From NCBI GenBank assembly GCA_030550455.1, contig JAUQPH010000006.1:59029-83028 (forward strand): 24,000 nt of DNA. Reading direction: 5' to 3'. The notes beneath the pieces were generated by a model. The model saw only the letters and a list, made by a program, of their open reading frames with translations, searched no databases and had not been told where the DNA came from. The DNA is from Thermoproteota archaeon (GTDB lineage Archaea; Thermoproteota; Thermoprotei_A; Sulfolobales; NBVN01). Shown here one piece after another: positions 4,489 through 21,243 of the stretch. The translations under genes were made by a program, and so were the position numbers. Position 1 is the stretch's first letter; each line of letters begins with the position of its first letter.

Positions 4489-4715
4489 CGCCGAACAGCC
4501 TCGATATATATTGCGAAATCAGGACAACTAAATTCACAAAGCCTACAGCCGATGCACTTTTCCGGGCGAGCTGGAACTACGTACCTATAGCCTCGCTTGT
4601 TCCTACTGTCACCTCTCTCCAAGACCTTCGTGGGGCATACTGATATACATATGCCACACTCTTTACATCTTTCGGTTATAACGTTGATAACATACTTACC
4701 TCCTTCTCTCTTTAT
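4485..4715 (-). CDS. 2-oxoacid:ferredoxin oxidoreductase, delta subunit (2x[4Fe-4S] ferredoxin); start codon unresolved
   Basis: Not in the ORF track. My translation of the minus strand gives ...KYVINVITERCKECGICISVCPTKVLERGDSRNKRGYRYVVPARPEKCIGCRLCEFSCPDFAIYIEAVRR*, with two CxxCxxCxxxCP motifs. The stop TGA is at 4487-4485. No in-frame ATG, GTG or TTG lies upstream of the first cluster, so the 5' coordinate is only the limit of plausible coding sequence. Confidence 0.7.
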   Translation of the reverse strand: MKREGGKYVINVITERCKECGICISVCPTKVLERGDSRNKRGYRYVVPARPEKCIGCRLCEFSCPDFAIYIEAVRR

Positions 4716-4719
4716 AAAG
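4710..4719 (-). promoter_or_regulatory. TATA-like box (palindromic CTTTATAAAG) upstream of the OFOR operon; a second candidate CTTTAAATAG lies at 4772-4781 (minus sense)
   Basis: A/T-rich octamers upstream of the first operon gene. GGAGGT (4698-4703, minus sense) lies between the TATA box and the ATG at 4693. Confidence 0.35.
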
Positions 4720-4862
4720 AGACTCGACGCAGTGCTCAGCCAACTCCACCTATATGATTACTTGAGCATAACTATTTAAAGCATGAGTTATTAACTGTAA
4801 TTACATGAGGGTTAGTGCTAAAAGCACAGCGACATAAAGAACTCGAACTCAACTTGGTCCAC

Positions 4863-5243
4863 AGGGTTTAGCTCTGATGCGAGCTCATACTAGGTCATCT
4901 CATTACCTCAACACTTCTCTCCCTCATTTCGTTCGTAGATTCATTGAGTCGGAGGTGTTCAAGGGGTACTCACACCTCGATTCATCCCGGGGAGGGCCTG
5001 CGTCTCATTGACGGGACTCTAACCACCTCATACGGTAGCCTCCACGCATTAATCAAACAATATAAGCCAATACAGAATGCGAAACAGTTTCCCGAGGCTT
5101 TACTGACTCGCTATTAAGTTAAACTAGGCTCTCCTCTAAATATGCTAGTAAGAGAGTTTATGATGTTTTAGGTCCTTTCTTCAGTAAGTAAGCGGATGTT
5201 TATGAGGACTATAGCGCTCCTGCTACTTAAATAGAGTGCTTTA
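4863..5243. repeat. Noncoding element, copy A (paralogue of 6689-7033, same orientation)
   Basis: Seven colinear shared blocks with copy B (coordinates in the finding at 4863-5243), spanning AGGGTTTAGCTCTnATG at the left end to AGTGCTTTA at the right end. No ORF of 50 or more codons on either strand. Confidence 0.6.
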
Positions 5244-5248
5244 TCTGT

Positions 5249-5539
5249 TTACCAGCTTCTAACGCTAACCTTCACGATGTTTCCATCGACTTGAGCGACA
5301 GCATGTCCTGCGGAGTACTCTACCTCTAGCTTCAGGATCTTCCCTCCGACAACATCTTCAAGAGCGGAGAGTGACGCTACGGCAATAGCTACTGCTTTTG
5401 CTATAGACCTATTAGCTTCGAGCCTGTCGCCTAGCACATCTATGAGTTCACCGGTTAACCTATCGACTACGAGAACTCTGTCTGGTAACTCGAGTGCCAA
5501 CCTAGCTGGGTTCTGGGTTTTCACGTCGACAGAATCCAT
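5249..5539 (-). CDS. Small hypothetical protein, Roadblock/LC7 (MglB-like) fold suspected
   Basis: 96-aa ORF. The predicted alpha-beta-beta-alpha-beta-beta pattern (LVVDRLTGELIDVLG ... SIAKAVAIAVASLSALEDVV ... KILKLEVEYSAGHAVAQVDGNIVKVSV) resembles Roadblock/LC7 singletons. TATA-like GTTTTTAAAG lies ~35 nt upstream. The family call comes from pattern only. Confidence 0.45.
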   Translation of the reverse strand: MDSVDVKTQNPARLALELPDRVLVVDRLTGELIDVLGDRLEANRSIAKAVAIAVASLSALEDVVGGKILKLEVEYSAGHAVAQVDGNIVKVSVRSW

Positions 5540-5635
5540 TAAGACACCATGGAAATGCTGAGACTTTGCTTACTTTAAAAACACTTACTCATATAGTGTA
5601 ACCAGCTGACCAGGGTTCGCCGACCAAGCGAGGTA

Positions 5636-5644
5636 TTATTTAAG
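5636..5644 (+). promoter_or_regulatory. TATA box TTATTTAAG for the HypC-fusion gene
   Basis: A/T-rich box centred ~36 nt upstream of the GTG start at 5676. Confidence 0.4.
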
Positions 5645-5675
5645 TCAAGGATGCTGTTAGCTATCGGGTAGTGAC

Positions 5676-6494
5676 GTGTGTTGGGGTGTATTAGCTAAGC
5701 TAGTCCGAGTCGATGGTGTTGAGGGTGAAGTGGAAGTTGGGGGAGCTACTATAAGAGCTCTCATTGCGGTAGAGGAGGCTAAACCTGGAGATGTAGTGCT
5801 ACTTCATGCTGGTGTAGTCATAGAGAAACTAGATAGAGAAAGTATTCTGGCCAACCTTACTGTATACTACGACTTAGTTAAGTACCACTATACCTTCAAT
5901 GGACTAAGCGAGGAGGAGGCAGATAGGAAGGCTCGAGAAGACCTTGTTAAGCTAGCTCAAGACCTAGGTATTTCACCTGAGGAGTTACTAGAAGTTCTGC
6001 GAGAGAATATGCGAGAGCAAGAAGACAAGGCATCTAAGCAGGAAAGTGTGCCGGAGTCGTCGTTTTTTATAGACTACGTAGTCCAGCTAGCTGAGACAGA
6101 CTACCTCCAGGTTATGCACTACACAAACTATATCAGAGTTTGCGAGAGGGCTTTCATGGCCATGCTGTCTAGTGCGGGTATTAGTTACAGTAGGCTAATA
6201 CACGAGTACGGTTTGTTTATTCCTACAGTTGAAGTTAATGCGAAAATAAAGTCTCCGTCGAGGCTCGACAATACCTTGAGGGTTTACGTGTGGATAGAGG
6301 AAGTAGGGAGAAAGCACCTTAAGTATAGGTGTGTAGTTCACAATTTGACTACTGATAGAATCGCTGCCGATATAGAGCACGTCGCAGTCTGCACGGATAC
6401 TGCGATTACATCGAGCCACGAGCTACCAGAGGACATCAAAAAAGCCCTGGAAACTCTTTCTCGCAGTGATAGATCGCTGAAACAGCATAGGTAG
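5676..6494 (+). CDS. Fusion protein: N-terminal HypC/HybG/HupF-like domain, helical acidic linker, C-terminal 4HBT/YbgC-type hotdog acyl-CoA thioesterase
   Basis: 272-aa ORF with a GTG start, giving the N-terminal Met-Cys typical of HypC (MCWGVLAKLVRVDG...GDVVLLHAGVVIEKLD). The C-terminal half, VVQLAETDYLQVMHYTNYIRVCERAFMAMLSSAGISY...FIPTVEVNAKIKSPSRLDNTL, matches the 4-hydroxybenzoyl-CoA thioesterase pattern (Asp plus His-x2-Tyr region). Confidence 0.7.
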   Translation: MCWGVLAKLVRVDGVEGEVEVGGATIRALIAVEEAKPGDVVLLHAGVVIEKLDRESILANLTVYYDLVKYHYTFNGLSEEEADRKAREDLVKLAQDLGISPEELLEVLRENMREQEDKASKQESVPESSFFIDYVVQLAETDYLQVMHYTNYIRVCERAFMAMLSSAGISYSRLIHEYGLFIPTVEVNAKIKSPSRLDNTLRVYVWIEEVGRKHLKYRCVVHNLTTDRIAADIEHVAVCTDTAITSSHELPEDIKKALETLSRSDRSLKQHR

Positions 6495-6513
6495 GTTTTG
6501 CGTCCAACCTATG
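6486..6513 (+). terminator. Hairpin overlapping the stop codon (CATAGGTAGG-ttttgcgt-CCAACCTATG)
   Basis: 9 of 10 positions pair. The 8-nt loop contains TTTT. The stop TAG at 6492-6494 lies inside the 5' arm. Confidence 0.35.
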
Positions 6514-6688
6514 TAAAGACGGATACGACGTCCTCTCAAGATGAGAACCTTCTTTATAGAAAGTACGGCCATTCTCAGAGCTAGCCGTCGCTCAATGCTG
6601 TACTCTACAGCACGTTTAGCATTTCTAACTCCCGCTTTACTTTGAAAGTACTACTAGAAAAGGGAAGCATTTTACGTGTAGCTGTGTA

Positions 6689-7033
6689 AGGGTTTAGCTC
6701 TTATGTTGGTTTGTATTGATTTCATCGCCCCACATAATTCCCCCACACTCTGCTCAAGCTCTCATCGGGTACCCTTAGACTCCCCCATCACGTATCACTA
6801 CGTACGGAGTGCGAGAGTTTCATCCCATATCAACAGATGTGAACAAATATGAAACCTAAAAGTTGCGCTAGGTGAGCTCAATATCAGCTATAAGAAAGCG
6901 GTGATAAACGTCTGCGTAACTAATGTATGGAACTAAGAGAGTTTAGTTAAGAGCTTTTTATGTCCGCAGATCGCTATCGAGAGTAAGATGCCGTAGACTA
7001 AGTGCTTGGTTACTGTAAGGTTTAAGTGCTTTA
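6689..7033. repeat. Noncoding element, copy B (paralogue of 4863-5243, same orientation)
   Basis: The same seven colinear blocks as copy A (coordinates in the finding at 4863-5243). Partly overlapped by a 66-codon minus-strand ORF that is not conserved in copy A. Confidence 0.6.
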
Positions 7034-7194
7034 AGAACGTAGTTACTAGTTGGTGATGACTCCGCCGAACATGATCGATGAAGTAAGGACTCGAGCACTG
7101 ACTACTTTCAGAGAAGAGCGCGTCTATCATCAATCAACTCTGGTCTGTCATCATCTTCTTGTTTAAACTTGATTCAGTAAAACTTATAAGCATA

Positions 7195-7202
7195 CTTTTA
7201 TA
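7195..7202 (+). promoter_or_regulatory. TATA box CTTTTATA for hppA
   Basis: Centred ~26 nt upstream of the ATG at 7225, which fits a leaderless or near-leaderless archaeal mRNA. Confidence 0.45.
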
Positions 7203-7224
7203 CCAGCTAAAAAAGGGTTAAAGT

Positions 7225-9273
7225 ATGCTGGCACTAGTGCTGAGTGCTGTAGCAGGTGGACTAGTACTAGCTTATACAGTATACTTAGCTACATCCGTCA
7301 TGAAGTATCCCGCAGGTACTGGACGAGCCGTCGAGATCCACGAGTTCATTAAGGAGGGTGCCAGTGCTTACTTAAGGAGACAGTATGGAGTTATAGCACT
7401 AATATCCGCAGTGCTTGCTGTATCTATCTTCGCTGTAAACTTGTTTACCGGGAAGTCGGTACCCTGGAGATCCCCCCTCGTTTTCCTTCTCGGTACCGCA
7501 TCCTCTATGATTGCCGGCTACTTCGGTATGTCTGTAGCTACTAGAGCGAACGTGAGAACGGTTAACGCAGCCGTTAAGAAGGGTCTGAAAGACGCCTTCG
7601 CTCTAGCCTTCAAGGGAGGACTCGTCATGGGGTTGACTGTAGCAGGTTTAGGGACTCTCGCCATCGCGGCACTCTCCTTAATATTCGGACTAACTGAGGA
7701 TACTGTTAGAGACCTAGTGTACTACGCTTTCGGTGCTTCAGCCGTGGCACTGTTCGCTCGAGTAGGTGGTGGGATATATACGAAAGCTGCTGACATAGGT
7801 GCTGATCTTGTGGGTAAGGTTGAAGTAGGTATACCGGAGGACGACCCAAGGAACCCCGGTGTCATAGCGGATAACGTTGGAGATAACGTTGGAGATGTGG
7901 CGGGAATGGGTGCTGACTTATTTGAATCTTACGTTGAGGCCATAGTCTCAACCATGGTCATAGCTCTAGCGCTAGGTGTTGTCGGCTGGTACAACTTCGC
8001 TATACTACCTATATCTGTTTCAGTAGCCGGACTGCTGGCCTCTGCTGCTTCTGTTGCCATAGTCCTCCTCGGGAGAGTTAAAGATCCAGCGCAAACCTTA
8101 ACGCTCTCCAGCCTTGCTTCAGCAGTTATCGTCGCAGCATTCAGCTACTTCGTGTCTACGCACCTACTAGGTGGAGACCTCGGTATTAGGGCGTGGGTTG
8201 CTGTTGTTGCCGGTCTAGTTTCGGGCGTCGTGGTCGGATTCACGAGTGATTACTTCACGAGGAAAGGGCTTCCACCCACTATTAAAGTAGCGGAAATGTC
8301 TCAAATGGGTCCAGCTCTAACGATACTGTCAGGAATGTCTTACGGGTTCATAAGTGTCGTAATTCCTGCTGTCTGCATAGCGTTAGCAGCTCTCTTAGCG
8401 TACTACCTCATGGCCTCCGTCGGAGGCTTTTGGTACGGAATCTACGGTGTGTCACTAGCGGCAGTCGGCATGCTGTCACTAACTGGGTTTGTGGTCGGTG
8501 CGGATGCCTACGGTCCTATCACTGATAACGCTGCAGGATTAGCTGAGCAGGCTGGTTTAGGCGAAGATGTTAGGTCTGTAGCGGACCTCTTAGACTCTGC
8601 CGGTAACACGATGAAGTCCATCTCGAAGGGTTACGCCATAGGTTCCGCAGCTCTAACGGCTCTAGCACTACTAGCAGCCTACGTGAGCATACTACCTAGG
8701 GTCGAAATGGACCAGCTAAGCTTACTTAACCCAACCGTGATGTCCGGTATCTTCATAGGTATGGCTATCCCGGCTCTATTCACGTCAATAGTCATTAGAG
8801 CAGTTAGTGACTCTGCTTTCGAGCTAATATCCGAGATCAGGAGACAGCTAAAAGAGAAACCCGGGATACTGGAGTTTAAGGAGAAGCCTGACTACGGTAG
8901 GGCCGTAGACGTCGTGACTAAGTACGCTATCAAAAGACTGGTAGTGCCGGGTCTGCTTGCTATAATAGTACCTCTCGTAGTAGGACTAACTCTAGGTCCA
9001 TACGCGCTTGCTGGAACACTGGCTGGAGCTATAGTATCGGGACTACTACTTGGCTTATTCCAAGGCAACGTAGGCAATACGTGGGATAACGCCAAGAAGT
9101 ACATAGAGGAAGGACACTTCGGAGGTAAGGGAAGTGAGGCACATAAAGCGGCAGTTATCGGCGATACGGTTGGCGACCCCTTAAAGGACGCGGCTGGACC
9201 ATCACTAAACATCTTGATAAAGCTTATGAGCATAGTTGCTCTAGCTTTTGCTCCAATATTTGCGGCCCTATAG
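7225..9273 (+). CDS. hppA: Membrane-bound ion-translocating inorganic pyrophosphatase (H+/Na+-PPase)
   Basis: 682-aa polytopic ORF with signature motifs [48 protein letters not shown] and [10 protein letters not shown]. Confidence 0.95.
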
Positions 9274-21181: not shown

Positions 21182-21243
21182 AAGCGTCAGATAAACCCTG
21201 CCGTCATCACGCTTCAGCGATCGAGGACTTCATCAACTAGCTT
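21182..21243 (-). ncRNA. C/D box sRNA (2'-O-methylation guide RNA)
   Basis: The minus strand reads AAGC-tag-tTGATGA(C)-agtcctcgatcg(12 nt)-CTGA(D')-agc-GTGATGA(C')-cggcagggtttat(13 nt)-CTGA(D)-c-GCTTttcttc. Box order and spacing are canonical for archaea. The 4-bp terminal complement is AAGC/GCTT, and a T-tract follows box D directly. Confidence 0.75.

Follow-up and report, generated by a model that had tools for sequence, protein, structure and literature searches.

What occupies the long non-coding gap upstream of hppA? The gap spans 730 nt, positions 6495-7224, in the 24,000-nt stretch of archaeal DNA analyzed here (the window), and a sequence-only reading had placed in it a novel RNA element at 6689-7033 (copy B), the second of two copies of a unit of about 345 nt whose first (copy A) starts at 4863. 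The answer reached here is a different one. Positions 6690-6872 hold, with high confidence, the dead remains of one copy of the miniature transposable element that dominates this genome, a copy shortened by an internal deletion, and the remainder of the gap is host sequence with small-RNA candidates of its own. The proposal of a novel RNA element is replaced by a decayed derivative of a TnpB insertion sequence, absent from the corresponding site of the closest relative.

A dispersed repeat family and its TnpB-encoding parent

The strings on which the sequence-only reading was built are all present: AGGGTTTAGCTCTTATG at 6689, AGTGCTTTA at 7025-7033, GTAGTTACTAG at 7039-7049, and CTTA where copy A has CTGA. 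Pairwise alignment of the gaps holding copies A and B returns GGGTTTAGCTCT, TAAGAGAGTTTA, and AGTGCTTTA as common blocks. A search of the genome (1.65 Mb in 17 contigs, 87.8% complete) with positions 6660-7060 found about ten further sites at 71-76% identity, with only the first ~85 nt matched. A profile constructed from seven of those sites found more than 100 significant segments genome-wide, which define a repeat unit of ~285 nt with at least 54 near-full-length copies (52-54 depending on the count), plus fragments, in the 1.65 Mb. Several to many copies lie at contig ends, where repeats that break assemblies are expected to be found. Read in the plus orientation of the window, family copies start with GGGGTTCAGCTCTGATG and finish with ...GAAACAGTTTCACGAGGC(T/A); the sequence before the start and the sequence beyond the finish are unrelated among copies. 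Inverted repeats are lacking: the termini read GGGGTTCAGC... and ...CACGAGGC. Two close relatives, the sister genome G006 and a second genome designated G007, have 43 and 20 matches to the family, respectively.

Four or five members of the family are longer, at ~1.5 kb. These share both ends with the short repeat, and are interrupted after position 134 by ~1.0 kb, plus ~170 nt. Each long version has one TnpB open reading frame of 412-451 residues on the opposite strand, that is, in the minus orientation of the window, with a C-terminal end reading ...CPRCG...C(G/T)(R/K)CG(L/F)TGDRDV.... The encoded protein scores 63.8 bits to Pfam model PF07282 (Cas12f1-like_TNB; cut-off 26.3), 63.2 bits to TIGR01766 (cut-off 32), and 94.7 bits to the NCBIfam model guided_TnpB, just below its cut-off of 100. 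Its relatives, at 51-85% identity, come from hot-spring metagenome-assembled genomes labelled Ignisphaera, Desulfurococcus/Desulfurococcaceae and "Sulfolobales archaeon", and from one Bathyarchaeota bin. The stop codon is the TGA in ...CAT CAG AGC TGA ACCCC, inside ...CATCAGAGCTGAACCCC, and falls 5-6 nt from the right-end terminus. Because the long versions carry a TnpB gene, the short repeat is recognized as a gene-less, MITE- or PATE-like derivative of a tnpB-only element of the IS200/IS605 type. The parent is a ~1.5-kb tnpB-only (IS1341-like) IS200/IS605-type element, and the ~285-nt derivatives are products of internal deletion that keep the left end (LE) and the right end (RE), including the last ~45 codons of tnpB. 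At least nine TnpB-domain matches in the genome score above the Pfam cut-off, and intact tnpB genes are among what the genome encodes. No match to the Y1 transposase TnpA (PF01797) was found in the assembly, at its completeness of 87.8%.

On the tnpB strand, the predicted fold of the family consensus is a long-range helix that encloses four hairpins. RNAalifold returned no structure for the 54 copies under default settings, and the fold described here comes from relaxed settings. For the predicted hairpins, 83% of cells are paired across the 54 copies, compared with 39-50% when the pairing partners are slid. Double changes exceed controls in hairpin 1 (22 vs 11) and in hairpin 2 (14 vs 1-3). 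Covariation in favor of an RNA scaffold is modest. TnpB is an established omega-RNA-guided nuclease (PMC8612924), and gene-less IS605 derivatives that encode omega-RNAs have published precedent (PMC10055086). In intact members of the family, the omega-RNA that guides TnpB would be the transcript of the stretch from a TATA-like box to the right end, its guide portion would come from the DNA immediately past the right end, and the family would have been mobilized in trans by a single-strand Y1 transposase, by "peel and paste" with seamless excision.

Copy B is a decayed member of the family

Copies A and B were scored with a family profile made from 53 genomic copies, with copy A excluded. Copy A (5101-4864, minus strand) matches nodes 3-282 of 283 with an nhmmer E-value of 6e-29, and is a fuller although diverged member of the same MITE family as copy B. 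The paralogy noted earlier between the element at 4863 and copy B is therefore upheld by the family-profile matches as that of a true repeat, but neither the count of two copies nor the extent of ~345 nt survives; the family has at least 54 copies, and copy B ends at about 6872.

The informative strand of copy B is the minus strand, and the nhmmer match to it falls into two parts. The right-end match, 6769-6690 (-), covers nodes 199-282 with an E-value of 4.7e-15, and the left-end match, 6872-6789 (-), covers nodes 7-96 with an E-value of 5.9e-9. The right-end segment (6690-6769, minus) shows 79% identity to the family consensus. Its sequence is antisense to the final ~27 codons of tnpB and matches the 3' part of the presumed omega-RNA. 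The left-end segment (6789-6872, minus) is 65-65.5% identical to the consensus. In the 19-nt junction between the two matches (6770-6788, minus), an internal deletion has removed family positions 97-198, so that 19 nt stand in for 102 central positions. With identities of 79% at the right end and 65.5% at the left end, in a family that ranges from 97% to 58%, copy B belongs to the older half.

Compared with the profile, copy B is without hairpins HP1-HP3 and the TTATAAA box of the family, the long-range helix has lost its 5' strand, and the terminal tnpB-derived sequence is mutated. Given the loss of nodes 97-198 and of that box, a complete omega-RNA-like transcript cannot be made from copy B. 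The complete scaffold of hairpins and long-range helix, with a promoter, that a functional TnpB omega-RNA gene requires is absent from it, and an ORF search found no reading frame of 60 or more amino acids inside 6690-6872.

Copy B does not have the layout of a C/D-box sRNA, a unit of 50-70 nt with a C box (RUGAUGA) close to its 5' end and a D box (CUGA) close to its 3' end. The CTGA of copy A and CTTA of copy B are where they were said to be. They are antisense to the final tnpB codons, CAT CAG AGC TGA, and are not a D box. Rfam models at gathering thresholds match nothing in the window. All matches stayed below threshold when 4600-7300 and two canonical family loci were scanned permissively with Rfam; the sole one in copy B was ceN70 at 6689-6730 (-), which scored 16.4 bits where the gathering score is 65. 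ARAGORN found no tRNA in the window. Mobile elements of this kind are known, and copy B is an ordinary, decayed one: a piece of junk DNA rather than a novel functional RNA, and probably without function today.

The insertion lies between a hypC-thioesterase fusion gene and a pair of candidate small-RNA genes upstream of hppA. In the fusion gene itself, ORF 5676-6494 (+), residues 1-61 form an N-terminal HupF/HypC domain and residues 136-258 a 4HBT thioesterase-like domain, an unusual pairing.

Empty sites in related genomes

Thirty relatives were searched with window positions 6400-7400, and the two close ones were informative, with identities to the window over 7010-7397 of 92% for G006 and 88% for G007. 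The alignment to G006 is unbroken up to window position 6688 and resumes at 6872. What is missing, 6689-6871, is exactly the element defined by the profile. Following the element site, G006 retains 160 nt that are clearly orthologous (z 12.5). Since G006 keeps 6872-7033 while having no element, the right third of the unit first proposed (6873-7033) is host flank rather than element. Copy B is lacking from G007 also, there inside a larger gap. At the other locus, copy A is present in G007 and absent from G006, where the gap is colinear with the A flank of the window (z 4.1). A third family copy, at locus L003, has an empty site in G006, without target duplication; the empty site at locus L002 was too diverged for the junction to be placed. 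As for the target-adjacent motif (TAM), two empty-site comparisons suggest a junction after ...CCT/...GCT, and left-end flanks show a weak A/T preference before GCCTCG.

Presence in one genome and absence in another, with seamless junctions, is the pattern of IS200/IS605 "peel-and-paste", an established mechanism (summarized in PMC10055086) that would, on this comparative evidence, apply here as well. Copy B is ~25% diverged from all other copies and the G006 flanks are only ~8% diverged from the window, a pattern that requires loss in G006, not recent gain in the window's lineage. Copy B may be missing from G006 through seamless excision, or the insertion may have been polymorphic. A second indel occurs elsewhere in the gap: between 6593 and 6594, G006 (C24) and G007 (C4) have ~135 nt extra that are missing here.

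Candidate C/D-box sRNAs and the hppA promoter

Next to the relic, positions 7043-7225 are ~90% identical in G006 and G007, with parts recognizable in four further genomes. This block contains two conserved candidate C/D-box sRNAs. The first, at 7050-7102 on the plus strand, has box C GTGATGA at 7053-7059 and box D CTGA at 7098-7101. Seven genomes share its guides, TCCGCCGA and AGGACTCGAGC, without any change, its internal boxes are degenerate, and in a permissive scan it gives a weak match to Rfam sR5 (15.3 bits). In some relatives it occurs away from hppA. The second candidate, 7158-7106 on the minus strand, reads ATGATGA ... TGATGA ... CTGA and weakly matches Rfam sR5 and sR2 (17.5 and 15.6 bits, permissive scan). 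G006 and G007 keep its boxes and D guide, G004 and G009 part of them. The weak Rfam hits coincide exactly with the positions and strands of the two candidates. The two candidates are convergent, with 3' ends ~4 nt apart.

A search for rRNA targets of the four guides gave nothing above random expectation. In a predicted pairing of 11 contiguous base pairs, the D guide of sRNA 1 places its N+5 position on C56 of tRNA-Asn(GUU). A role for sRNA 1 as a general Cm56 guide that replaces aTrm56 was considered and rejected; two of 35 tRNAs fit, and aTrm56 is found in all 31 of the genomes searched. The best tRNA match for sRNA 2, ten pairs with the D-arm of tRNA-Ala, is not above chance.

A palindromic TATA box, CTTATAAG, at 7183-7190 is invariant in 7 of 7 aligned genomes. 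The hppA ATG follows ~35 nt downstream, and the 5' end of sRNA 2 is ~27 nt away. The box fits an hppA promoter and, being palindromic, possibly serves as the promoter of sRNA 2 too, in a bidirectional arrangement. AGTGCTTTA falls within a TATA-like stretch 20-30 nt upstream of sRNA 1. What had been taken for a conserved AGTGCTTTA end of the repeated element accordingly lies in the TATA-like region upstream of a conserved candidate C/D-box sRNA.

Several smaller features had been described around copy B. The 66-codon ORF at 6933-7133 (-) was judged earlier not to be a gene, and we agree: the frame stops after ~33 codons in both G006 and G007, substitutions divide 18/16/15 by codon position, no Pfam match was found for it, and it overlaps both sRNA candidates. 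The hairpins at 6486-6513 and 6596-6612 do exist, but such hairpins occur at chance frequency, with 24 perfect 7-bp hairpins in the window against 19.5 +/- 5.8 in shuffled sequence. The one at 6596-6612 is not kept in G006.

The palindrome GTAGTTACTAG had been likened to operator-like sites near a C/D sRNA farther along the window. That sRNA, at 21187-21238 (-), is canonical, with the arrangement TGATGA-12 nt-CTGA-AGCG-TGATGA-13 nt-CTGA, and is missed at Rfam gathering thresholds; two GTAGTnACTAC-like palindromes separate its 5' end from its TATA-like box. A similar motif upstream of it is thus confirmed, but the link to C/D sRNAs is not. As a C/D-sRNA operator, GTAGTTACTAG was rejected: it reads GCAGTTATTAG in G006, is unrecognizable in more distant genomes, and has no association with C boxes genome-wide. 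TAGTN(1-2)ACTA occurs at only twice its expected frequency in the genome, and a C box comes after it in two cases where 0.9 would be expected.

Similarity between the flanks of copies A and B, and other readings of copy B

One feature of the locus is left over by the identification of copy B as a MITE relic. On the left-end side, the flanks at 5102-5244 (A) and 6873-7033 (B) are colinear and similar, with a local alignment z of ~6 and a score reached by 0 of 500 shuffles and 1 of 2000 random genome segments (p ~5e-4). Simple transposition does not account for this similarity. Copies A and B could instead be two copies of a larger composite of ~345-380 nt, consisting of the MITE and ~150 nt on the left-end side, either moved in one piece by aberrant left-end cleavage that took host flank with it, or with flanks partly homogenized through gene conversion between these nearby direct copies. 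The colinearity past the canonical left end speaks for such a unit; in both copies the shared region has the right-end terminus as its exact start, and the A flank is similar also to the B flank of G006 (z 3.5). Against it, G006 has an extension-like flank at both loci with no MITE at either, and the A-locus flanks of G006 and G007 are unlike the B flank (z -0.3 and -0.2). A profile search of the genome with nhmmer found no copy of the extension beyond ~6872 other than those at A and B. The similarity, moreover, consists mostly of one 12-mer, of one 9-mer, AGTGCTTTA, that occurs 63 times genome-wide (~5 times the uniform expectation), and of short blocks. We regard a composite unit as unlikely. 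The window's A flank resembles its own orthologues (z ~4) as well as the B flank, and the A/B similarity is confined to this genome. Candidate causes of that similarity are gene conversion in patches, transduction of the flank with canonical excision afterwards, and coincidence helped by promoter-like motifs. That it records alternative left-end cleavage that moved host DNA, or gene conversion seeded by the MITEs between nearby copies, is a distinctly unlikely explanation.

The other readings assign a present function to copy B. A functional structured non-coding RNA, whether transcribed on its own, as an hppA leader or as antisense RNA, might be imagined from the length of the intergenic gap, the existence of a paralogue, and the lack of any Rfam match, which a new family would also show. 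The paralogue, however, is one of a transposon family to which copy B belongs, the family's hairpin core and TATA-like box are missing from copy B, and copy B is absent at the orthologous site in G006 and G007 while the adjacent sRNA/hppA upstream block, 7043-7225, is conserved at ~90%. With hppA equipped with an invariant TATA box of its own at 7183-7190, an RNA function for copy B seems highly improbable. We give almost negligible weight to the idea that copy B still donates a guide RNA to TnpB in trans, its right end and flank yielding an omega-RNA that targets the empty-site sequence. PATEs have been proposed to act in this way (PMC10055086), the genome has intact tnpB genes, and the right-end 80 nt are the best-preserved part of copy B (79% identity), but deletion has taken the three central hairpins along with the 5' strand of the long-range helix, the TATA-like box is gone, and the tnpB-derived terminal sequence carries mutations. 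Co-option of copy B as spacer or regulatory DNA for the promoters of sRNA 1 or hppA, suggested by its position ~150 nt upstream of the promoter-like region of sRNA 1, would have to explain why the same sRNA and hppA promoter block stands in G006 and G007 with no copy B; its probability is next to nil. The identification as a dead MITE copy is the one we retain.

Relation to known systems

PATEs (palindrome-associated transposable elements) and PATE-like elements derive from tnpB-bearing IS200/IS605 elements; they carry no gene but retain both ends and the omega-RNA region (PMC3119063; PMC10055086). As in Haloquadratum walsbyi (PATEs) and Geobacillus stearothermophilus (PATE-like elements), the family described here is gene-less, dispersed and multi-copy (PMC3119063; PMC10055086). 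PATEs and the present family both consist of the LE and RE of a tnpB-bearing element, including the omega-RNA-coding RE, with proteins supplied from trans. Unlike PATEs, this family comes from a hot-spring Desulfurococcales-like archaeon, and its whole RE is still tnpB coding sequence, with the stop codon 5-6 nt from the terminus; copy B, furthermore, is a further-deleted and decayed relic, in an 87.8%-complete assembly where TnpA was not found. The parent resembles the IS1341 group in its single TnpB ORF with a Cas12f1-like TNB/Zn-ribbon domain, in the lack of inverted terminal repeats, and in the lack of target duplication at the one empty site compared for it. The differences are that copy B has no gene, that the TAM and omega-RNA are here presumed ones, and that the guided_TnpB score of 94.7 stays under the cut-off of 100.

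The MITEs SM1-SM4 of Sulfolobus are derived from insertion sequences with terminal inverted repeats, and make target duplications. They share with the present family the character of short, non-autonomous crenarchaeal repeats formed by internal deletion of a resident insertion sequence, whereas the present family has neither terminal inverted repeats nor target duplication.

The candidates at 7050-7102 and 7106-7158 resemble archaeal C/D-box sRNAs such as Rfam sR5 and sR2 in their length of ~53 nt, in having terminal C and D boxes with degenerate internal C' and D' boxes, and in their conserved guide segments. In contrast to the Rfam C/D sRNAs, they score under thresholds and have no secure target. 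Copy B itself is unlike C/D-box sRNAs, its CTCTTATG block being the antisense of tnpB codons.

Significance

The result removes a false lead, in that an apparently new non-coding element proves to be left over from mobile DNA of a familiar kind. It also ties copies A and B to a TnpB element, fixes exact element boundaries from an empty site, and turns a 730-nt gap into an annotated region made up of a MITE relic, two conserved candidate C/D sRNAs and an hppA TATA box. Should the doubtful transposon-related origin of the A/B flank similarity be true, single-strand transposons could shuffle regulatory DNA in archaea, here a region that holds a C/D sRNA promoter. A family of ~54 gene-less copies, in a genome where several tnpB genes are intact and TnpA was not detected, offers a reasonable natural system in which to study the persistence of gene-less omega-RNA carriers.
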